Shown here piece by piece: positions 41,144 to 63,200 of a stretch of DNA of 64,000 nucleotides. The stretch lies in contig CT868041.1 of the NCBI GenBank assembly GCA_000165425.1, positions 62,001 through 126,000 on the forward strand, given 5' to 3'. The number at the start of each line of letters is the position of its first letter. Within the stretch, counting starts at the first letter, position 1. The notes below the pieces were generated by a model. That model was not told where the DNA came from and did not search any database. It worked only from the letters and a program-made list of their open reading frames with translations. The stretch comes from Paramecium tetraurelia. Taxonomy: Eukaryota. The translations under genes and the position numbers were made by a program.

Positions 41144-44100
41144 ATGGATTAAGACCAAGAGATAAAAATGAAAATAAGGTCACATTCTGTAGAGAGAGGT
41201 ATGAATTTATCTTATTGTAGAGAAAACCGAAAGCTAATCATAGTTTACAGATGAAATCGAAGATGATAAAATCGTTATTATTGGAGTTTGCTGCATGGCT
41301 AAAAAGTCTCAATCAAAGGAAATGCAAGAAATTCTGAATCGCATAAATCCTGAGTTTTTCAAAATCGAGATATTTTCAGAGTAAATGATTCTGGAAGATC
41401 CAATAGAATCTTGGCCAATAGTTGAAACACTTATAAGCTTTTATTCAGACGGATTCCCTTTGAATAAGGCCATAGCCTATGTTGATTTGAGAAAGCCATT
41501 TATCATAAATGATCTTAAGAAATAACAACTTCTATGGGATAGGGAGAGAGTCTATACATTATTAAAGAAAAACAAAGTGCCAGTACCTAAACATTATTTC
41601 GTGTTTAAAAATCCGAATAAATATATTATTGATGATTATAATAGAAAAGAAATTGAAAAGAAGTGTAAGCCAAGAAAGAATGACTAGGAGATAATTGAGG
41701 AGGAAGACAATGTTGATAGTGTTATAAGTTTTTTATAGAATGAGGATTCCTCCTAACATTTAAAATCAGTCTAGACAGCCAAATAATTATCGGAATTACT
41801 ATTGCCTCCAAGATAGGACACTATGGAAGATAAAAATAAAAATAAGATGAAATAGGGAATGAGATCTTACGATGCTAGATCGTTATCAGCTGTAATTGAT
41901 ATCAAGAAGGATAATAAGGATCTCTAGATTACGAAGATTGAGGAATGTGATGATTATTTATTAATAAATGGACAGAAATTAGTTAAGCCTTTTGTGGAAA
42001 AGCCATTTGATGCTGAAGATCATAATATTTACATTTATTATAACTCAAGAGATGGAGGCGGATGTAAGAAGCTGTTTAGAAAGGTTGGTAATTAGAGTAG
42101 TATATTTGATCCAGCTTAGAATAGCATTAGGAATGATAATGAAAACTATATTTATGAAGTATTCTTGCCAACAAATGGTTTCGATATTAAAGTCTATACT
42201 GTAGGAGAGTTTTATGCACATGCAGAAGCTAGAAAAAGTCCAGTATTGGATGGTAAGGTTGTTAGATCATAAAATGGAAAGGAAATGAGATATCCTGTTT
42301 GTTTGACAATGGAAGAGAAGATGATGGCTATAAAGATTGTGAATATATTCGGATAAAATATATGTGGATTCGATTTATTGAGAAGTAATAATAAATCATA
42401 TGTGTGTGATGTGAATGGGTGGTCTTTTGTTAAAGGAAATGCAAAGTATTATTAAGATTGTGCCACCATTTTATAGAATATGATTTTGGCTAAGTTAAGA
42501 CCTACATTATTGTAGAAACAAATTTCTGATATCAATTTAGTTAAGGGATTCTACAAGAACTCTTTTCGACCAAGTTCAAAAGACATAGATAGCAAAGAAT
42601 AGAATTCTGAATTAAGATCTGTGGTGGCAGTATTTAGACATGGAGATAGAACACCTAAGTAAAAAATGAAGATGAGAACTTCCAATGTATTGTTTCTCTC
42701 TTTTTTTGATGAAGTAGTTGATCCATCTAAAGAAATTAAATTGAAGCATCCAAAATAACTATTAAAATTACTTAATTTAACTAGGGAATGTATTGCCAAG
42801 ACTTCTTGTAGAGATAATATTATTAAACTGCTCCAAATGAAGTCAGTTCTTGAATTAGGAGGACACTTTGAAGGCATCAATAGGAAAGTCTAAATTAAAC
42901 CACTAAAAACCTAAAAAATAGACAAGAATGGTTCGATTGTTGATTTCCCAGTTGAAGTCTTGTTAATTTTAAAGTGGGGTGGAGAATTGACCTAATTAGG
43001 TGAGGAACACGCTGCTAGATTAGGCAAAATATTTAGACATGACATGTATCCTACAGAGAAAGATGGGCTACTTAGATTGCATTCCACCTATAGACATGAC
43101 TTAAAGACATTCTCATCAGATGAAGGCAGATGCCAATACACTGCAGCAGCCTTTTTAAAAGGATTGCTAGGTTATGAAGGAGAGGTGACTCCTATCTTAG
43201 CTACTATGGTTTAGAAGAATGAGGTTGCCCAAGACTTGTTAGATTGCAATAATTTAGAAATAGAGGAAGAAGCAGAAATCAAAAACATTCTCTAAAAGAT
43301 GTTAACAAGTGATGAGGATATGTTGACATAGATTTACTAGCACTTTCCGGATTGTATTATGACTTCAACATAACATGATCTAATCAGTAAGTTTAAAAGT
43401 CCGAAGTCAATGCTTATATAATTACACACTTACATTAAGTAACTAACCAAAAATATAAGGTAAATTTAGAATAAAATAATTAGACATCACATCCATTTGG
43501 ATAAAAACTATTATATAACTCCTAGTGATATGGAACAAGGAGCTTAAACTATGTTTGAATCAGAAAATCTAACTTTATTCTTCAAAAGATGGTACAAATT
43601 AGAATATGATTTCTTGCAAAAGGATAAATTCAACATTTCCAAAATCCCAGATATTTATGACAGTGTCAAATATGATATGCTTCACAATTAGGATAAATTA
43701 TAGTTTTATGAAAACTCAAAGGAATTTTATTGCTTAGCTGAATTGCTTAGCCATTTTATGGTTCCATTCGAATATGGAATCACTACTAAATAGAAGCTAT
43801 CCATAGCCAAACGTGTTGTTGGTCCTTTGTGTAATAAAATTAAATAAGATCTCTTATGGTGGAATAAACCGGAATCAAAAAACCAACAACAAGAAGAAGA
43901 TTATTGGAAGTTCAGATAAACTGATGAAAGTGATTTGAATAGTCCATGGAGACATGTGAGAACTAGATTATATTTCACATCTGCTTCTCATTTGTACTCT
44001 TTGTTTAACATCCTATATTATGGATTAGGTCATTACTTAATAGAAGATGAATTCAAGTAAAAACAATTGTAACAAATATTAATGCTGTAATATCTGTCAA

Positions 44101-44333
44101 ATATTGTTATAAAACTCTATGAAGATTTGTCTTCTGAGAAAGGAGATCCTAATAGATTTAGAATAGAATTAAGTGTTTCTGATGGAATTCAAATGTCTTT
44201 TCCAATCGACAAAAATATGCCGTCCAAAAGTGACAATATTCACATCAACTAATCATTAAGATTGGATTAATTGGAGGATTTCCTTAATCAAATCATTGAC
44301 TGCGCTTTTGGGGATGATGTTCAATCTTAATGA
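41144..44333 (+). CDS. VIP1: Inositol hexakisphosphate / diphosphoinositol-pentakisphosphate kinase (PPIP5K): ATP-grasp kinase plus histidine-phosphatase-like domain
   Basis: [121 protein letters not shown]. Confidence 0.95.
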
Positions 44334-45801: not shown

Positions 45802-47272
45802 TCAAAGTTTTCCAAAATCCACTCTTAACTTTTTAGGAATTACTTCCAACTCATTGTTACCATTAAAAGTTAAAATTGCATATTGTTATGCTGGTTAAAA
45901 GAATTGAGGATTAATAAAAACAGTTTAATCAATTAATTTAGCTGATTGTGTAAAATGAGATGGAGTAATAATGACATCTGGACATTGATCAAAATCTAGA
46001 AATTCTTATTTGGTCAAATCACAAGGGAACTTGGTAGGATTGATAGGCACAAAACTTCTTTATTCAATGATTTATTTTAATGCAGCTTCGATTTTATTTA
46101 ACTTCTGAACACCAATCTTTTCTGAAGCAGAATTTATCTCAGACACCACCTCTTCATTTATAATTCCAATTGTCATATCTTCAACTTATAAAATGCATGG
46201 ATTTCCAACAAACATTAGGTTATCTACTTAAACTTTCTTTTTCTACTATTCTACTTTGATATTTATAGGTGGTTGAGGTACTGGATGAAAACTAGTAATT
46301 TCTTTCGTAGAGTTCACTACTATCACTTGGACTCTTGGGATTTCCTCCATAATCGCTTACAGGATTATTTCGAAAAATTCTTCATACTCACAAATACAAA
46401 TAAAACATTACCTCATAATTGTACTTATCCAAGTTCTCCTAATTCTTGATATCCAAAATAGGTCCCAATAACATAAGTATATCACATGAAATTTATTTTT
46501 TCTTAATTTTTTCAACTAGAGCGAATAAACCTTTGTATCCAAATTTGTCTTCTTTTTCAAATGGACCAGCTGCTATAACCATAACAATAGAATCGGATCT
46601 TTGCTATGCCTAGTAGTTCTTAAAATTTGAGGGTTCTTCTTAAATGGCCTAATCGTCAGGGTAGATAGATAGGAATCTTCTCACTTCTAATTCTTAATCA
46701 GTGGATTGAGAGATTACTACTCCTACTATTTTACCGGGGTATAAGTATGCTCCTTCATTTTCAATAGATTGCAAATTTAATGATTTTGGTTTTTGATCAT
46801 CTTTGAAATCTAAGAAAAATGATTTATCAGATTTTAATAATTTTTGAGTGCTTTAAGTGTCACTTTAGGTTTGGTCTGTTGGGACTTCGATTTTAAGAAT
46901 TCTACCAAAACAGATGTTGGGTTCTGGCTCTCTTTAATTGAGTCTTTCCCATTATTTATAATCTGCTTCTAATTTTTATATTCTTTAGGTAATGCTTTCT
47001 CTCTTTTTTTCAAAAGTCGAACAAAACAATTCCTTCAATTAATTAATATCGTATTCATATTTTATGGCAATTTTTCTAGGATACGAATACTAACTATGTG
47101 TGAAATCAGGCCACTATTTATTGAACCCATCTCCCAAATAAATGAAATCATCATCATTTTCAACATCCATGTGGTTTGTATTCTCTTAAGCCTATATCTC
47201 TTAAAGTCTTGTTAAGAATATATTTTTCTTAACTGAACTAAATGCGAATATTTCTTCAAAGGCATCACCCAT
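45802..47272 (-). CDS. POLA2: DNA polymerase alpha-primase B subunit
   Basis: AYLYPGKIVGVVISNP, VMVIAAGPF, LMLLGPILDI, PVPQPP, VGNPCIL and PDVIITPS match the Pol alpha/epsilon B-subunit family. Confidence 0.8.
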
Positions 47273-47454
47273 GTTTAGATATTCAAAAAATACTTAATTA
47301 ATTTATGGCGCAATTTTTGTAAATTATCAATTAATCAAATAGCATTATTTGGGAAGGCCAAAATTAAATAGAAAACCCTTAAAATCTCAAGAAATCAATA
47401 ATAGGATTAATATACAAATAATATATTATTTGTTTATTTTTAATATTTTTAATT

Positions 47455-48360: not shown

Positions 48361-49712
48361 ATGTCTTCTGCAAAAGTTCCAAACTTATCAAGAATTAAAA
48401 GTAATCTAGAAAAAAAGTTTATTGATGTCTATGGGAATAATCCCTAAAACCAAGAAATACTTGATTACATAATAAGAGAGTTAAAAGGGGAAACAGCATA
48501 AAGTGAAAAGAAAACTAAATCATCATAACAGATATATTCTGAAGATAAGGCAGTCTAATCAATACCCTAAACTGCCCCTTAATTAACCGAAAAAATCATT
48601 GATAAAACCAAAGAACCATCAAATAAAAACTCTAAGGAATCTCAAAAACTATCTAGTCATGTAAGAATACATGTAAAACTAGCATGGTAGATCAGTATAT
48701 GAAATTGATTCATTAAAATGGGGTTAATATGCAAAAGAATAAGATTTCAAGTAAAAATAAGAGGATGAAGAAAAATAGAAAAAATTAGCACAATAATAAG
48801 AAGATCTCAGGAAGTAGTTATGTGAAATCAAGTTAAGGAAACTCAAAGAGAAAGAGGATGAAAAGAATTCAGACATTAGATTTGCAGAGTAACAAAAATA
48901 ATAGATCAAAAAACAAGAGGAACTTTCTAGATAGAATAAAGAATTAAAAGCTTAGTAAAAAAAAGAAGAACTTTAATAAGTCAATACTTACTTAGATAAT
49001 TTAAAGAAAATGGAAAGAAAAAAACAAAAAATTAGAATTGCAGAAGAGCAATAAGAAATTGCTTAAGGTATTAGTATTAATTAAATTCTTAGTTTTAAGA
49101 TAGATGCATTTAGAAGATGAAATTAATAAAAAAAAAAAATTAGAAAAGTAGTTAGAAATGTAGAAGGTCCTAAAATAATATGATGAGGATTAAGAGAAAT
49201 AAAAGAAAGCTATTGAAAAAGAAAAAGAGGAGGATAGAAAATTAATGAAATAAAATAGTGAAATTATAAAAAAAAGGGATGAATAGAGAGAAAAAGAAAA
49301 AAATGATAGATTAAATAAAATAGAAGGAATAGCCAATAGATTTTAATAAACTGTTGATAGGGAATTACAAGAAAGAATAAAAGAGGAAGAGAGAAAATGT
49401 TAAAAGCATATGAAGGCTTAGGAAGAAAAAGAAAGAAAAGAAGAAGAAAGAAAGAAAAAGTCTTTGGAGAGAAAAACTAAGGAAATGACTGATGAATTAA
49501 AAAGACAAAAGTAATAAAGAGAAGATGTAAAAAAACGAGAAATAGAAGAAGATAAATAATTAGCAAAAGAAATTAAAGACAAAATCTTGAGAGATGAAAA
49601 ATTGTCATTAATAAAGAAAGAAAAGTATAATGAAAAAATCTTAGAAACAAATTAGATAATTAAAGATTAAATGGTAATTGAAGAGAAGAGGAAAAAGAAA
49701 AAAAATATATGA
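48361..49712 (+). CDS. E/K/Q/R-rich coiled-coil protein (trichohyalin-plectin-homology-like)
   Basis: MSSAKVPNLSRIKSNLEKKF...; long charged heptad region; introns near 48661-48690 and 49068-49092. Confidence 0.7.
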
Positions 49713-49724
49713 TAATATATTTTA

Positions 49725-50253
49725 GTTACTTTAATTGAAAATCAAAGTATAAATTTAGAATTGATTAACTATTAAGCCTAACTAGTTCAATTTTTTACAT
49801 CTAAAATGAGATATATTAACCTCATTATCTTAGAAATAATCATTTTCTAATTGTGAACTTACAACTATCTTAGTTGTTTATCATTTTTAGCTGATGTTCA
49901 AACTCATTAACCTTTAAATCTAAATTATACTGTGCGATTAATTACACTATTTCTTGATTTAAAATATTGCGTAATTAATCTATCATTTTATGATTCTCTT
50001 AAAATAAACTATAATACTTTTTAATTTCTACTGATAAAATTACATAAGAGAATTCTTAATTAAATAAATAGTTTTCTAAAGTTCCTTTAGCTGAGTTTGA
50101 TAATAATAAATAATTTTTTATAATTCGAGTAAAGTTCAAATCAGAAATTGATAACTAACAATAAATTCTTTATATTGATTATTATATCCCTGTTTGTCTT
50201 GACTATTTAGATGCGAAAAGAATAGCAACTTTTAATTAATTATAATTAATCAT
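49725..50253 (-). pseudogene. Possible divergent or degenerate small gene (weak longin/R-SNARE-like appearance)
   Basis: About 135 open codons from MINYNQLKVAILFASKQ to ...LRNILNQEIVQLIAQYNLDLKVNEFEHQLK, but the ATG sits only 4 bp from the PDE stop and the 3' splicing is unclear. Confidence 0.25.
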
Positions 50254-50257
50254 AATT

Positions 50258-52242
50258 TCATTTAGGTTGAATGGAAGCTAACTATTGTTTATAAAATTCG
50301 ATAAGTTCTTGCCACTTAGCTTTATTTTTATCCAAGTTTTAAAAGAAAGGTTCATAAGCTGGAAGGAATCCTAAGACACATGCAAATGTAGGTTTCACAA
50401 CATAATCAATAAATCTGATAAACAAGAAATAGAATACCCCACTTATGCTTCTGCTGTGTTGGTTGTATATCGATTACATAGATATGAGATAGGTAAGCCA
50501 AGGTCTCTCTCTTTGTCTCCCTACAGCCAAAATTCAGATAAGACTTTTTCTGTCCATTATTTATAGATTTCAAAGCTTTTGGTAGGATTGGATACATCTG
50601 AGGAATGTACAATCAAGTCCATCAATCTTTGTTTATCTTTGCCATTGGGTTCAAAATCGGCTATTTTTGCATATATAAATAATAAATACGAGCAGCAACT
50701 CTACTATTGGTGATGGCAAGTTCTGAAGCATGATGAGCCATATCTGTAGAAAGAACCATTAAGATAATTGATTCTCTGATGCGTCTGTATTTATGAAATT
50801 ATAGATTTTCAAAAATATTGACTTTTTGATTTCCCCAGGCAATTTTAAAGCATTAGGAGGGATGATACATTTCTAAAACACTCTGATCATTGTATGTTAG
50901 AGCCAACTCATTTCTACTATTGATTAGGAATGCATTAGTAAGTCCTGGGTGTCCATAATCATGAATAGCTCCAGCAATCAACACACAGGCAATGTCTTAT
51001 TCATCTAATTAACCTATTTCTATGAATTTGCATTTGCTTAATAAGAAATTGCAAGTTTAAGCAACATCTTAAGCATGGACCTTATTGTGATATGGATTAT
51101 CAAGGTATCCTTTCATTACTTCTTCAAAGTATCCTCTTACCACTTTAGGTTTGATTAGGAACACATCAAACAGATTATAATTTTCAAAGAAAAACAACAT
51201 CAAATTCACCAATCCTTCGCCTCCAGATAGTTTGTCACACTCAAATGGATCAATATATAGATCATCATGTTATTTATATAATATATCCAGTAACTATTTA
51301 ATATTATTTTAAACTTACTCTTTTTGGAATATTCAGTTTTTAAAAATTAGCAATTACTTTCTTTTGTTATTGTTATTATTAATCATTAGTTAATATTCGC
51401 TTGACTTCAGTTCTGCCTTATTAACTTTGATTTAACCAAGCCATAGCCTATTTATTTGAAATATTGACTTACTTCAGCATTGTCTTCATCCAATTTGCCC
51501 ATTTAATACAACTGATTATTTCCTATCTTGTCAATACAATAATCAATATCTAACTTCATATTTTCATCTTCCAACACTTCCTTCAACTCAGCCAGGAACC
51601 TTACTATTTTTTCGGCTGGTGTGGAAATAGTGGAAATCGTTGCCAATCTCCTAAATGTCTGGGCCTTTCTAATTAAGAGAAAGATTCTCAAGAATCGAAA
51701 GACTGCCTAGATTACTTTGATTACATTGGATGTTTTTTGATCAGCCAATTCAAATATCACAAAAAAGAGTGACAGTAAGATAATTAGAGTGTCTAAAATC
51801 AACCATTTGTCTTTATAATATTTCTATACATTATGTATTAAAATTACCTTGATGCCCCAAGCATACAATCCAACAAATATTTCTATAATGAATACTATCA
51901 GTATTCCAAGTTCAATCCAACTCAGAATTGACGAGACATTATTGAATTAAGTTTCATCTAGCAATTCTTCAAGGGCCACAATGATAAATATCAATATTGC
52001 ATAAGCTCCCACCAATGCTATAATACTAATAGTAACAAGCTTCGAATTCACAATATCTTGAAACTTTTGTTCGGATTAAGTATACAATCTAACTATTCAC
52101 TGAATTCAATTTACCTCATATTCAGCTTCTTTCGAGGAACCTCTATCATCTTGTCATTTCTCTTTGTAGAATCCACTCTCATGGTCTATTTGTCAGGGTT
52201 TTCAAGACTTCTCTATTAGGAATCAGATCCCGAGGGCAACAT
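50258..52242 (-). CDS. Class I 3',5'-cyclic-nucleotide phosphodiesterase with an N-terminal four-helix voltage-sensor-like (S1-S4) domain
   Basis: Catalytic motifs NPYHNKVHAQDV, AIHDYGHPGLTNAFL, YNDQSVLEMYH, VLSTDMAHH, HSSDVSNPTK, EFWLQGDKE, AQVGFIDYVVKP. N-terminal helices ...WIELGILIVFIIEI...KDKWLILDTLIILLSL...AVFRFLRIFLLIRK. Introns include 52089-52114 and 51824-51847. Confidence 0.92.
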
Positions 52243-52436
52243 TTGTATAAATTCAATTAATTAAAAAAACTTATTCACTGCATTTCTAATAACAAAAATT
52301 GTATAATATTTTGAGTGTTGACATCAATGTGAATTTGGTTCACATGTCTACACCCCTTCATTCACACTCTGATCTTCCCACATTCATAATAATTATTAGC
52401 CTTTATCACCAAATATCTGTTACGTTAATTTATTAA

Positions 52437-53470: not shown

Positions 53471-55076
53471 ATGAAACCTGAATAAGAAAATGAATCCACA
53501 GACGAACTTTCTTAGTTGAGGGAAGAAAAGGCAAGGCGTAGATAAAAGAAAGAATATGAATTATAACTAATGGGGAAATGCATTGTATGGCTAATATATG
53601 CATATGTAGCAGGATTAATAATAACCACTATTAATTACATATTGGTATTCTAAAATTTCAGCATATAAAGTTGGAAAAAGAGTTTCAATATGAGGGCATT
53701 ATCGAGGATAACTGTTAAGATTTGAAAATACTCAAAAACATTAATGATTAAATATTCCCACTATTGGATGAATTGACTGTAATAAATTATTCCTTAAGCT
53801 TAAAAGTTCAAAAAGTATTTCAAAATCTTTCGAGTAAATTTGGAGAACGATTGTCCTTTTGGAATTGGTGAATATATTTGCACAAGTAAAAAATGTGTTA
53901 TTTGTACATGCAATTAATCTGAAGTATTCATCATTTAGTAATTTAATTAGATTCCATCAAATTGGTTATCTCCTTAATCTTGGCCTATTAATAACCCAAA
54001 GGACGATTTTGCCTTTTGGGATTCAGAGAGATTTTTATGTAATTTTAAAATAAATCCTTTATAGAACCTTCTGAATGGATATGGCACGTTGAAGATATCG
54101 AAAACGATAAGGGAGTCTACGTAGATCTCAAATTAAATCCAGAAGCATATACAGGATATTAGGGACAACACATATGGGATGTGATTTATAGAGAGAATTG
54201 CTATTAGGGTATTTTATTATAACTCAATTTGAATAATAGGTTCTTTGGATTAAATGTGCAAAGAGAAAAGAGCATTAAATAAGTTAGTTTCCAGGTCTAC
54301 ATGCATCAATTATCAACTTAATTAAGTGAATTTTACGTGGATCTTAAAACGAATAGAACATATCCTAATTATTCTTCGTATTTTAAAAGAGTGGGAAATC
54401 ATCCAGAAAGAATCAAAAATCTTTTCTTTTTATATTCTGTATTTGTTTCGTAGCAATAATTTTGGCTACTCCTGGAATCCAATAATATGATATCAACTCT
54501 TTATCCTTTGAGGATGATTTGAGATCTAAATAATTATTAAATCAAATTTTATCTCTAAGCAACTCATAATGCTCAAGACCTTTCGATGAATAATAATTTT
54601 TTAAATAAATCACATTTGTAATAATTTATATTTACATTTTAGGAGTAAAAGAAGGATTATTAAAGATACATTCACAATATCAGTAGAATAATGGATTGTG
54701 TGGAATGCTAAAAATGTAAGGTATTTGGAAAAATGCAAACTTATGGATTAGGAACTGCCCTCAAGATATTATTTTCAGAATCTCCTAGTGAGTTTTCTGG
54801 TAGATTGAAAAGAAATGAACTAGTTGCATTAATCAATACTTTTTGGAAAGGTATCAAGTTCTGTGAATTCTATTGATCTGATGTATGATAGACGAACTAA
54901 ATACCATTTTAACTTAATTTTGACAATTGGGGATTATTGGGGGTGTGATAATATTGTTTATGAATGTGATGCGCTTTTTGTATAGGGAAATGGATAAGAA
55001 AATATAAAAAATGTTTTTGGGAATGCCTACAGAAGATAATCGTAAGGATGTTGGTTCTAAGAAGAAGCGTGATTGA
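53471..55076 (+). CDS. ERO1: Endoplasmic reticulum oxidoreductin 1 (several apparent single-base insertions)
   Basis: [89 protein letters not shown] (CxxCxxC), [12 protein letters not shown]. Confidence 0.92.
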
Positions 55077-55118
55077 AATGAACCATTTATATATATTGTA
55101 CGATTGTATGTATCAATT

Positions 55119-55577
55119 TCATTGTTATGCTGTTTCTGTTTATTCTTCAGCTCTTCTTGGTCCTCTGTTTCCTCCTCTGCCGAATGGTTTGTTACCTCTT
55201 GGACCCCTTCTTTCAGGGACGTCATCTTCGAACTTTTTGTCAGCCTTCTTGAAAGTAGCTGGGATAACATCTTCGACAATGCCTTATTGTTAGATGATGA
55301 TTTCATACCCAACTTATCTCTTACATATTTAACACCTTCAGCCTTGAGATAATAGTAGTAGTATTGCCATGAGAACACCAAATCAACAAGCTTCTTATCT
55401 CTCAAACTTCTCAAGAGCATCCAAACTTCCAAATTTTTTACTCCTGTTTCAGCATGAAGTGGGAGAGCCATGTCCTTATGAATTCCTATGAAAATGTACC
55501 TTCTTGATAACAATAACACCTTCCAACAACAAATATTCATAGACCTTTCTTCTGTCTTATCTCTTGACTTGAACCAT
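55119..55577 (-). CDS. RPS10: 40S ribosomal protein S10 (eS10)
   Basis: MVQVKRQDRRKVYEYLLLEGVIVIKKD...NLEVWMLLRSLRDKKLVDLVFSWQYYYYYLKAEGVKYVRDKLGI..VIPATFKK; two introns. Confidence 0.95.
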
Positions 55578-56667
55578 GCAAAATAATGGATTTGATTTAT
55601 TTTAAATTTTAAAATAAAAATAAGCAAATACACTATTAATGCATTTTCGATATCTTTTTTCCTTGATCAACTCCAAATAATTTGGAATAAATTCCTATTG
55701 AAGGAGATCTGCATTTGCAAATTCAGTAAATTACTTTCAACTTTGAACTCATTTACAAATTGAGTTCTTTATAATAATTGATTGAGCAACTTAAAATAAT
55801 CAAATAGTATTTAAATATAAACTCAAATAATTTCAATTTTTCATAATTAGAATACAAATAAAGCCCCATTTATTTATAAAGACTATGATTTATTCAATGC
55901 AAAACTGTGCAGAATCATTGAAGCATTAATATATATAAATAATAGTGAAGTAAATATCAATAATTATATTAGTTATGGAAATCTGAATCTACAAACTTGA
56001 ATGGATATCTTTAATAATAAATCTCTCTTTTGATATTTAATTTAAGAACTTCAGAATGTAATCAAATACTGTAAAGAGTATATTAATGGATCTTTAATAT
56101 TTAAGGTTCTAATCAATCTTTAATCTTAATTACTAATTATTTAGTGAATATCTATTTGTTTGAATCAAATAAATTTCTCAATTGCAAAGTTTTCTATTAG
56201 AAGTTACATTCCAAATTTCTTGATTTAAAGAGATAGAGTAAAGAAATCATTTAAATTCAAAATAATTGCATTCTAAAATATAGTATAATTATATAGAGTA
56301 GATAGAATTATTGAAACCTTATTTGATTTTACTGAGTATGGATAGAAACTATGACAAAAATAAGTATAATGTGATTCATATTGTTAGGGTAATTGAATTG
56401 GTGGTATATAAGTAAAGGTGAGAGTTTCGGAAATTGAAAAATTCAAAAATAATTAGGAATTAGAATTGATACTAATAATAATCATTTGAGAGTTACAAAT
56501 GAAAATAAAGGGTTATTAGGAAGAAAGGAGATATTTGTGGTGGGAGTAAGGAGTTTATTTAGAGAGGGAAATGTCGAAAGAATATGAAATGATTGGTCCA
56601 TAAGAATATATACATATTAAGTGATATAATAATAAATTTAATATATTAAGATATCTAACAACCTACA

Positions 56668-60263: not shown

Positions 60264-63200
60264 TCAATTAAGTTTTCGTTTACTTTTAATTATTGGTTCT
60301 GCAAGTTCATCTACAATCTCTTAATTGTCAGCAATGTCAATAAATCTCAATTTTTTTAATTTTTTATCTTCTCTAGGGATCTCTTCATCTTCTTAAAATA
60401 CATCATTTTATTGTTATTCTATATCAATTTGATCGTCAATTTTCAAATCCAAGTCATTTGCATCCAACTCTTTGCCATCTTGCAAAAAATCTGATTCTGA
60501 ATCAAAATAAACAACATTCTTTTTTCTCTCTCTTTACCCTCGTCCATACTCCTTTACTTCCTATACTTCATTCTATTTTGAAGTAATCCATTCAGGTACT
60601 TCATCATCTTGAATTAATCTATAGTTAAAATATTGATCATCTCTATTTTGATTGAAGTTCTTGTAGATTAATTTCTCCTCCTCATATCGTTATCTATCTA
60701 ATTCATTAAAAGTCTCAAATTCCTCTTCGCTTCTTGCTATCCATTCATTAATTTAAGTGTCATCTGGTATATCTTCAGCCTCAAAAAGATCAACCTTATT
60801 TTTCTATCTAAAGAAATCTTACAATCTTTCTCTTCTTTCCTAATCTGTAGATCTCTGATTATATAAACCAGCCTATATAATAATTGCATCCAAACCCATC
60901 TTATGTTCTGCCTTGCTTAGAATATTACCCTCTATTTAAGTCGCAGTTATCAATCTTAGGACTCTAACTTCGTTTTTTTATCCGATTCTATATGCTCTAT
61001 CTTAGGCCTATAGATCCATCATTGGATTCCAATCACTATCAAACAATACGACAGTGTCAGCTGATTATAAATTTAATCCTAATCCACCTGCCCTGGTACT
61101 CAAAAGAAAGATGTTATATATTGAATTTTCTTAATTGAATAACTTAATTCTAGTTTCCCTATCCTCTGATTTTGTTGATCCATCCAATCGTAAATATCTC
61201 CAACCTCTGTATTCAAAGTATGCCTCCATTATATCCATCAATTATGTCATTTAACTGAAAATCAATAATCTATGTTTAAAGTACAATAATTTAGGAATTA
61301 TCCTATCTAATAATTCAAACTTGCCACTTGATCTCCATATTTCATCTGTAATTCTGTTCATATCCAGATTCAACATGAATAAATAAGGATGATTGCATAT
61401 TTTTCTCAATTACATCATTAAATTTTGTAAAGCTTATGATCCACTTTTTCCAGATTATTAATCAAAAGTCATTACTCCTCTTTAATTGATTTAGTCATAA
61501 ATCTTCTTTTACCAAGCTGATAGTTTTATCTTAATAACATACTCTGTCTTTCGTGGTAACTCTTTCTCCACATCCTTTTTAACTCTTCTCAATAGAAAAG
61601 GTCGAAGTACTTAATGTAATCTGTTGATGATCAACAATTATTCTTCTTCATCCAATTAACAATCCTTCTCATTAACTCCCATCTTACTTAAAGGCATCTA
61701 AAACCACTTCTCAAAATCATCGCATGATGAAAACACTTTTGGTAATAAGAAATTCAACAAAGCCCATAATTCTGCTATATTGTTCTATAAAGGTGTTCCT
61801 GTTAATAGCAATCTCCTCTCACTTTGATATTACTAACCTAAAATCATAGCAAATTTGCTTCTGGAATTTTTCATCCTGTGTCCTTCATCCACTATAATGT
61901 ACTTCCATTCATATTTTGCCAAGGCTAATCTATCTTTTAATACATATTCGTATGTGGTAAGACAAATGTTCCATATCGTTGTTCTCATTTGCTTAGATAT
62001 CTCCTTTCTAACTTAAGGTGAACCTTTATAGATTACTTTCTTAATAGAGGGAGCCCATTTTTCAAACTCATTAGCCCAATTACTTAAAGTTGACAATGGG
62101 ACTATGATAAAGAAAGGACCAAAGTTTTTCTTGGTCTCTATCAAATAACATAACAAAGAGATTGTTTAAATGGTCTTACCCAAACCCATTTCATCTGCTA
62201 GTATGCCGTTTAAACTATTATTGTATAAACTCACTAGCCAATCCAATCCCTAAACTTAATACTGTTTCAACTATCCTCCTTCCAATAACATAGGCTATTT
62301 AGTCACAACTTCTTTAATACGATGAGTAATATTGTAATATACTTTGTTTGCTTAATTGAGTTCATAACCCAAATTATTACTAGCATTGTTGTTATCTACA
62401 ACTTCATCCTCTTCATTTTTCTCTTCCCCTTTCTATATCTTGACCTTGGCTCCTATATCTTTTAAAAATTGATCTGTTTATCTTAAAATAGATACAACTC
62501 TTTCCTTTTTTGCTTCATCAAGTTTTTCCAATTTTTAGATATAAGTCACCATATCACCTTATTTGATGTCCTTCATTCTCATTTACTTATCAATCTGCTA
62601 TTGTTTTTGATCCTTCTACTCCAAAACAACCTTAAATTAAACACTACGCTTTCTAGCATGTTTATATTTCTTTCTATGGAACTCCATAAATTCAATTTGA
62701 TGTGCAAATATTGCTTGCATAAATTCCTTTTATTTGATCTTCTTCCTTCTTGCTTGTTCATGTTTTATCATGCTTAATTCAAATTTGTCAGATAGTTTAT
62801 TTTCTGGCCTTCTTGACGGTTTATCCCTTTTAAAATAATTTCTATCAAGTAACAACCTCTCTAACATTCTAGATTGCAGAACAGTCTGGTTTTCCTCTTG
62901 TAGAAGTGGATTAATAATGGCCTCTTTCATTTTGAGATAAAATTCCTTAGAATTGATAAAGAGCAACTCAATTTTTAAGGTCAAATATTTAGGGTCATTT
63001 TAGTGAGTTTTCTTTAGCTCCTACTCTATGTCCTACTTCCTCTTCTCCACATATCCTTACATTCGATCACTAAATATAGTTGTATCCTTATTATGTATAG
63101 GGAATTATGCTTACATCTTAATTCAGATCCAATTTAAGTTTTGGATAGCGGTCTCTGAATATGGATTTCAGTTCCTCATTTTTATCAATTTTATCATGAA

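Follow-up and report, generated by a model that had tools for sequence, protein, structure and literature searches.

The gene described here lies on the minus strand of a 64,000-bp window of the Paramecium tetraurelia contig CT868041.1 (contig positions 62,001 to 126,000), where it occupies window positions 50258..52242, with the ATG at 52242 and the TGA at 50258-50260 in the splice model. It is predicted to encode a pore-less voltage-sensor domain (VSD) joined by a helical linker to a class I cyclic-nucleotide phosphodiesterase (PDE) and is hereafter referred to as VSD-PDE. In the splice model, which is read with genetic code table 6 (the ciliate code), seven exons are separated by six short GTA..YAG introns (23-29 nt); the window is AT-rich (G+C 23-32%), and its reading frames are open only when TAA and TAG are read as Gln. 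The spliced coding sequence (CDS) of 1833 nt, i.e. 610 codons plus TGA, has no internal stops, and its translation is identical at every residue to the P. tetraurelia protein GSPATT00006250001 (UniProt A0C4N4, here P0011). This confirms the location, strand and splicing proposed in an earlier, sequence-only reading of the window, and the four helices quoted in that reading are all found in the spliced translation. Its guess that the domain pair might already stand in automated annotation was also right, as A0C4N4 bears the automatic name ‘Phosphodiesterase’, with PF00233 and PF00520 attached to its cluster. The gene is present in public annotation under this generic name and is uncharacterised. 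Its features are listed in Table 1.

Transcription was followed in two oligo-dT RNA-seq runs consisting of raw 58-nt reads, 108 and 180 of which aligned to the gene. Nearly all of them have one orientation; of the 30 bins over positions 50224-52295, the two runs fill 27 and 28, and sensor and PDE are represented alike. Splicing of intron 5 is visible in reads that reach 50690 and run on with the letters that end at 50660, and pieces of the RNA contig end at 51472 and 51825, adjoining introns 3 and 2, respectively. At intron 2, the low RNA depth and the contig end at 51825 are consistent with splicing and do not amount to proof of it. There are also 24 recurrent single-base differences in the reads within 50324-51728, each present in a fraction of the reads, which fit cross-mapping from near-identical duplicate copies of the gene (ohnologs) rather than editing.

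Residues ~45-187 of the protein match the Pfam family Ion_trans (PF00520) with an E-value of 5.2e-12 and 45.9 bits (cut-off 25), the matching stretch being residues 31-151 of the piece encoded by exons 2-3. This significant match covers profile positions 13-121 of 241, which correspond to the S1-S4 half only. Apart from a single helix buried within the PDE fold, hydropathy analysis places membrane segments only within residues 54-175, and it detects none between S4 and the PDE domain. Since no further membrane segment follows S4, there is no S5-P-S6 pore module, and the claim of the sequence-only reading that the protein is pore-less holds on both counts: the Ion_trans match halts at position 121 and no membrane segment is seen between residue 175 and the PDE domain.

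The roles of the conserved residues of the sensor, namely the S2 Phe and acid and the S3 Asp of the charge-transfer centre together with the outer S2 acid, are those known from the Shaker/Kv literature. The FxxE pattern reported earlier for S2 is F109-x-x-E112. For the WxxxD pattern, W130 and D134 are indeed present, but the string that had been labelled S2-S3 is actually S3. Similarly, the four S4 arginines listed in that reading (R166, R169, R175 and R181) were found, but the list was incomplete, with K159, K176 and R182 being basic as well. The basic residues of S4 are spaced as R166, R169 (+3) and then R175/K176, with K159 located further out and the hydrophobic L172 lying in between R169 and R175.

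A structural model of the sensor was produced with AlphaFold2 from the N-terminal 303 residues of the duplicate protein P0005 (96% identical) and 40 family sequences. The predicted local distance difference test score (pLDDT) exceeds 90 over approximately residues 50-170, and the model consists of the four helices given in Table 1. When this model was used as a Foldseek query, the best 50 chains were all voltage-gated channels or Ci-VSP, the voltage-sensing phosphatase (VSP). With a second structural aligner (VIA), 420 of 584 chains had a Z-score of at least 8; the Ci-VSP sensor 4g7y_S ranked first (Z 14.9, root-mean-square deviation (rmsd) 2.5 Å, 126 of 131 residues), followed by the sensors of Cav1.2, Nav1.x, CatSper, TPC1 and SLC9C1, and the best 50 rows contained only sensors of channels, VSP, TPC, CatSper or SLC9C1. 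The predicted four-helix bundle has the fold of solved voltage sensors, and a voltage-sensor fold is therefore predicted for residues ~45-187. The nearest solved sensors by sequence are Cav3.2 repeat IV (E 1e-4), Cav1.3 (E 8e-4) and TPTE2 (9c49, E 9e-4).

The sensor is followed by a linker consisting of two parts. Linker A shows a mean identity of 36% in the family described below, which is equal to the conservation of the sensor; a Pfam scan assigned it to no family, and it is modelled as two short helices, 192-206 and 210-224. W244 in linker B is invariant among the fusions. The helical linker noticed earlier after S4 is hence present in the models and is, in addition, conserved in the family.

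Judged by sequence and fold, residues ~286-610 form a complete PDE4-like class I PDE catalytic domain with the predicted active set intact. PDEase_I (PF00233) is matched in exon 5 (E 5e-42, profile positions 1-129) and in exon 6 (E 2.3e-20, positions 141-210), and the PDB matches to PDE4 and PDE1B span residues 293-597. The closest solved enzymes are Schistosoma PDE4 (E 6e-58), PDE1B (4e-57) and human PDE4B/D (~1e-54), and the PDE domain in the full-length model superposes on PDE4 with a template-modelling (TM) score of ~0.9 and an rmsd of ~2 Å. The metal, catalytic and purine-clamp residues, whose roles are taken from PDE4 structures, are H352, H356, H394-D395, H398, D467, H471, D506, Q557 and F560. 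They include all the motifs quoted in the sequence-only reading, i.e. YHN..H (H352, H356), HD..HPG (H394, D395, H398), TDM (D467) and the invariant Gln (Q557). As the pocket residues N509, Y517 and Q557 are PDE4-like, we lean towards cyclic AMP (cAMP) as a conjectural substrate.

A complex prediction for two copies of residues 185-610 resulted in a score of 0.81 against 0.02 for the best control. Among proteins solved as pairs, 21 of 30 attain this level, as against none of the 23 that were solved as single chains. Agreement between the runs is at least 38% of contacts, the pLDDT of the partner is at least 83, and the confident interface is formed by catalytic-domain residues 410-464. VSD-PDE thus probably dimerises through its catalytic domains, with the reservation that solved PDE4 dimers exist and the score may reflect likeness to them. 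Contact between the post-S4 helices, which would have resembled the coiled-coil coupling of Hv1, was considered as another mode of dimerisation and found to be unsupported, the confident interface being located in the catalytic domain only.

Table 1 Features of the VSD-PDE gene and the neighbouring genes (positions are those of the window)
Feature	Position	Strand	Residues	Remarks
VSD-PDE, whole coding region	50258..52242	-		7 exons, 610 aa + TGA, equals P0011
Exon 1	52115..52242	-	1-43	Start codon (ATG) and N-terminal tail, cytoplasmic; matches no Pfam family; modelled with low confidence
Intron 1	52089..52114	-		26 nt, GTA..TAG; removal restores the frame and yields the database protein
S1 helix	51962..52042	-	59-85	Short amphipathic helix (47-56) before S1; model secondary structure, hydropathy
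S2 helix	51857..51955	-	88-120	Outer acid E102, charge-transfer F109, inner acid E112
Intron 2	51824..51847	-		24 nt; S2-S3 turn; in frame, stop-free
S3 helix	51743..51808	-	129-150	Invariant D134
S4 helix and cytoplasmic extension	51632..51727	-	156-187	K159, R166, R169, R175, K176, R181, R182
Linker A	51488..51631	-	188-235	Helical hairpin, conserved, family-specific; P192, E194, I223, L228, Y229
Linker B	51288..51487	-	236-285	Holds introns 3 and 4; W244, then variable Gln-rich helix
Intron 3	51448-51472	-		25 nt; in linker B
Intron 4	51294-51318	-		25 nt; in linker B
Predicted class I, PDE4-like catalytic domain	50261..51287	-	286-610	Holds introns 5 and 6
Intron 5	50661-50689	-		29 nt; in PDE domain; splice visible in RNA reads
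Intron 6	50415-50437	-		23 nt; in PDE domain
PPIP5K-type inositol pyrophosphate kinase gene	41205-44333	+		1042-aa open frame; PPIP5K N-terminal, ATP-grasp and histidine-phosphatase domains
DNA polymerase B-subunit	45805-47326	-		
Lys/Glu-rich open reading frame	48603-49709	+		
Ribosomal protein S10	54857-55666	-		

An exhaustive phmmer search with the sensor piece against 1.84 billion representatives (E <= 1e-3) returned 128 hits, and a Pfam scan of all of them found PDEase_I in 21. Twenty of these 21 also match Ion_trans, with the match never extending beyond profile position 127 of 241; in the remaining one, P0030 from Tetrahymena, the sensor was detected with a hidden Markov model (HMM) of the family (104 bits). 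The 28 hits with a length of at least 560 aa include 20 sensor-PDE fusions, six multi-repeat Cav/Nav-like channels and two other proteins, and the remaining sensor hits are mostly short fragments matching S1-S4 only. Named fusions come from Tetrahymena thermophila, Ichthyophthirius, a second Paramecium paralogue family, Protocruzia, Oxyrrhis marina and another dinoflagellate, and further ones were found in transcript or metagenome assemblies, with the transcript-assembled relatives carrying the sensor and the PDE within one open reading frame (ORF). Word-indexed searches found only two clusters from the P. aurelia complex (13 and 6 members, six species), the fusion P0153 and animal T-type channels. 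Surveyed in this way, the architecture occurs in ciliates and also in dinoflagellates, and by sequence the fusion is conserved across both. Bit scores with the family HMM are 61-141 for the sensors of the PDE family and sensor-linker relatives (100-141 for complete fusions) versus 16-56 for channel repeats, a gap that is partly circular because the profile was built from the family itself.

Conservation was counted in 28 aligned full-length fusions, which are 21-39% identical to P0011 outside the aurelia group. The outer S2 acid (E/D102), the inner S2 acid E112, the S3 acid D134, the S4 arginines R166 and R169 and a basic residue at position 176 are found in all 28, F109 in 27 and R175 in 26. 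At position 162 there is Arg in ten fusions and Lys in one, and at position 163 Arg in eight, the named dinoflagellate members among these, and Lys in one, the latter position giving the regular R-x-x-R-x-x-R spacing; eight of the fusions, including P0011, have no basic residue at either position. In the PDE domain, H352, H356, D359, H398, D467, H471 and D506 are present in all 28, the purine-clamp F560 in 27, the metal pair H394/D395 in 26 and the purine-clamp Q557 in 25. Among the 14 aurelia proteins the identity is 100% in S3, 97% in S4 and 93% in the PDE domain. The residues held by purifying selection are precisely those required by a voltage sensor and by a PDE.

Several relatives differ from this layout. 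P0124 from Chromera velia (UniRef A0A0G4IBZ8) has the sensor and the conserved linker ahead of the initial portion of a PDE domain in which the catalytic His is replaced (Y-R-N vs Y-H-N), after which come an extended region of low complexity and a RING finger; from its sequence it looks like the sensor cassette re-used with another effector. The 734-aa P0085 from Colponema vietnamica contains the sensor (residues 387-509) and the linker, preceded by ~390 residues with extra hydrophobic stretches, and no PDE domain was detected in it. P0089, P0096, P0148 (Oxyrrhis marina), P0123, P0165 and P0137 have 200-410 extra residues N-terminal to the sensor, which match no Pfam family at E 1e-5. A sensor-only cluster from the ESM Atlas with Perkinsozoa as the commonest taxon (score 0.75) fell below the trust level and was not used.

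The closest known build is that of the VSPs (Ci-VSP, TPTE/TPTE2), which likewise consist of a pore-less S1-S4 domain, a short basic post-S4 stretch and a cytoplasmic enzyme. However, the effector of VSPs is a PTEN-like lipid phosphatase and not a class I cyclic-nucleotide PDE, their linker is a short lipid-binding motif as opposed to ~100 residues of conserved helices, and they are metazoan, whereas the VSD-PDE family is alveolate. The Pfam scan found PDEase_I alone after the sensor and neither a PTEN-like phosphatase nor a C2 domain. With a PDE as its effector, VSD-PDE resembles VSPs in build without being a member of them, and as the nearest sensor sequences are Cav-type repeats, the fusion probably arose independently of VSP.

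Choanoflagellate Rh-PDE is a dimeric enzyme with a membrane sensor N-terminal to a class I PDE and a helical linker. It shares with VSD-PDE the order of these parts, but its sensor is a light-driven eight-helix retinal protein and that of VSD-PDE a predicted four-helix voltage-sensor fold, and none of the searches made revealed any sequence relation between the two membrane parts. PDE4 long forms have the closest catalytic domain (E ~1e-54, 33-36% identity, TM ~0.9) and helices upstream of it as well; in the long-form PDE4B entries, however, these helices align only at an rmsd of 14-15 Å, no match to the upstream conserved regions UCR1/UCR2 was found in VSD-PDE, and PDE4 has no membrane sensor. 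The proton channel Hv1 and the sperm Na+/H+ exchanger SLC9C1 (chain 8pd2, fold match Z 13.5) have voltage sensors that work without a classical pore domain, as is predicted for VSD-PDE, but in Hv1 the sensor itself is the conducting part, in SLC9C1 it gates a transporter, and neither controls a soluble-type enzyme domain. Hv1 is characterised by a mid-S1 acidic selectivity residue, a Trp-containing S4 motif, a short coiled coil and the lack of an enzyme, whereas in VSD-PDE the S1 acids are at the outer end only, S4 has no Trp and a PDE domain follows.

Like VSD-PDE, the ion-channel-like adenylyl cyclases known from Paramecium, Tetrahymena and Plasmodium combine an N-terminal Ion_trans-type module with a cyclic-nucleotide enzyme; they occur in the same organisms and are linked to the membrane potential, as would be the case for VSD-PDE, and a passage of PMC4588038 ascribes an ion-channel-like build to every P. 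tetraurelia cyclase. These enzymes make cAMP and have been described with a K+ channel domain and a conductance, whereas VSD-PDE is a predicted hydrolase the membrane part of which ends after S4.

The sequence-only reading had proposed a single gene in which a helical linker connects a pore-less S1-S4 fold to a complete class I PDE domain, and every part of this that is testable by computation was upheld. The proposal gains strength from the charge network of the sensor and the linker being conserved in ciliates and dinoflagellates. Taken as a whole, the explanation that we prefer, to which we give an even chance of being correct, is that of a 610-aa membrane enzyme encoded by one gene, in which the voltage sensor drives the PDE through the linker. 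S4, with R166, R169 and then R175/K176, would move with the membrane potential past the charge-transfer centre formed by F109, E112 and D134; the long S4 helix would transmit this motion to the cytoplasmic side, from where the conserved hairpin of the linker would relay it to the catalytic domain, switching hydrolysis. By analogy with Ci-VSP, we guess that depolarisation would turn the PDE on. Hyperpolarisation would then spare cAMP, adding to the hyperpolarisation-linked rise in cAMP in Paramecium. This rise is ascribed in a passage of PMC4588038 to a channel-like cyclase, the inter-domain communication of which is called unclear there. In this way, we infer, voltage would control cyclic-nucleotide breakdown through VSD-PDE.

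A number of observations weigh against this explanation. The S4 of P0011 is charge-poor, with Q162/A163 at the place where 20 of 28 relatives carry a basic residue; its charge is thereby reduced to two arginines at regular spacing together with R175/K176. In the full-length model, pLDDT is below 50 at residues 182-190 and 230-267, where the coupling would occur, and the predicted dimer interface excludes the linker. Voltage dependence, polarity and substrate are all properties that we infer, and the preference for cAMP depends on N509, Y517 and Q557, which presumably play the same roles as in PDE4. At the RNA level, no splice joints above the listing threshold were obtained with 58-nt reads at low depth, and reads of this length are too short to prove a single transcript. 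In addition, an ohnolog of the gene in P. tetraurelia is annotated as two genes, one for the sensor (P0005, 303 aa) and one for the PDE (P0008, 268 aa). Finally, according to a passage of PMC8208649, cAMP injection under voltage clamp leaves the beat frequency unchanged, which makes the connection between cAMP and ciliary beat a matter of dispute in its own right.

The main rival is that the S1-S4 bundle is merely a membrane anchor, a targeting module (e.g. for the ciliary membrane) or a relic sensor, with the PDE being constitutive or regulated otherwise, for instance by phosphorylation or Ca2+. Many protist PDEs do have N-terminal membrane helices that are regarded as anchors, and both the absence of an outer basic residue at 162/163 in P0011 and the lack of confidence in the predicted coupling geometry fit such a role. 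It nevertheless seems unlikely to us, given that the buried charges (acidic 102, E112, D134, R166 and R169), together with F109 in all but one of the fusions, are kept from ciliates to dinoflagellates, and invariant buried charges are costly to keep and unneeded in an anchor. Moreover, S3 and S4 are more conserved than the PDE domain itself in the aurelia proteins, and the post-S4 linker is likewise conserved.

It is improbable, to a greater degree, that S1-S4 is a working sensor whose stimulus is not voltage but, for example, a lipid, the pH or some small ligand bound in its cavity, as in TRP-type channel domains. Nothing specific speaks for this apart from the charge-poor S4 of P0011, whereas the conserved set is the voltage-sensing one, consisting of the S4 arginine ladder, the Phe cap, two S2 acids and one S3 acid, and the nearest sequences and folds are sensors of Cav, Nav and VSP and not TRP-type domains. 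Still more doubtful is the suggestion that the pore-less sensor conducts protons or ions, in an Hv1-like manner or through an omega pore, with the PDE modulating or reading out the conductance. Hv1 is a lone S1-S4 domain able to conduct, and the fold of VSD-PDE does match lone-sensor proteins; however, S1 has no mid-membrane acid, E83/E84 being at its outer end, S4 lacks the Trp-containing motif of the Hv1 type, and there is no Hv1 chain among the best 50 VIA rows, which is a weak argument.

That neighbouring sensor-only and soluble PDE genes were wrongly joined in the gene model, as might be suspected from the two-gene ohnolog and from the adjacency of PDEase_I and Ion_trans genes reported in part of the Euplotes genome paper (PMC8670190), is hardly credible in view of the six canonical tiny introns whose removal leaves no in-frame stop, the exact match to an independent annotation, the conserved linker exons, the continuous one-strand RNA depth and the 20 long relatives, several of them transcript-assembled, with both domains in one ORF. 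As for the ohnolog, P0005 (GSPATT00009583001, sensor-linker) and P0008 (GSPATT00009582001, PDE) are 96% and 98% identical to P0011, respectively, and together they miss ~40 residues present in all other copies, so the two-gene annotation is probably a prediction error; a real split or decay of the ohnolog is still conceivable.

In the full-text literature, with subscription journals and supplementary tables lying outside the search, no paper on a sensor-PDE fusion was found, in agreement with the earlier statement that no characterised VSD-PDE was known, and the four gene identifiers are not mentioned in the full texts either. The words phosphodiesterase, cyclase and Paramecium do not occur in the voltage-controlled-enzyme review PMC3440755, and a passage of PMC8584932 names only a phosphoinositide phosphatase as a sensor-coupled enzyme. 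The statement nearest to VSD-PDE in print, as far as the relevant passage goes, is the one from Euplotes that PDEase_I and Ion_trans genes ‘were always adjacent’, which was read there as two functionally linked genes (PMC8670190); this pair may be the same fusion divided by gene prediction.

A wider proposal, the prospects of which we consider to be somewhat short of even, is that VSD-PDE is a true voltage-gated cAMP PDE working in push-pull with the channel-like adenylyl cyclases, so that voltage would set the cyclic-nucleotide level in ciliates and dinoflagellates, and that the sensor and linker are a portable alveolate cassette for different effectors. The portability is suggested by the Chromera protein, in which they precede a degenerate PDE and a RING finger, and by their occurrence in the PDE-less Colponema protein. 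To our knowledge, direct control of an enzyme by a voltage sensor has been demonstrated for VSPs alone. If the preferred explanation is true, VSD-PDE would join VSPs as a second class of voltage-controlled enzymes, one that evolved independently, and would be the first one-step link from membrane potential to cAMP or cGMP. Action potentials and cyclic nucleotides govern how these organisms swim. The passage of PMC4588038 cited above still calls the mechanism by which hyperpolarisation raises cAMP in Paramecium unclear. The family is large and old, reaching from ciliates to dinoflagellates, and its natural variants, which have two to three outer S4 arginines, lend themselves to structure-function study; a compact module that converts voltage to cAMP might also find use as a tool.

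The genes surrounding VSD-PDE (Table 1) are unrelated housekeeping genes, so the context offers no clue to its function. Within the gene, intron 2 has a length divisible by three and is stop-free, and its retention would therefore add eight residues to the S2-S3 turn; these eight codons are missing from all 14 annotated aurelia proteins. The relative P0020 (54% identical) has an insertion at exactly the site of intron 2, possibly a retained intron in its gene model.

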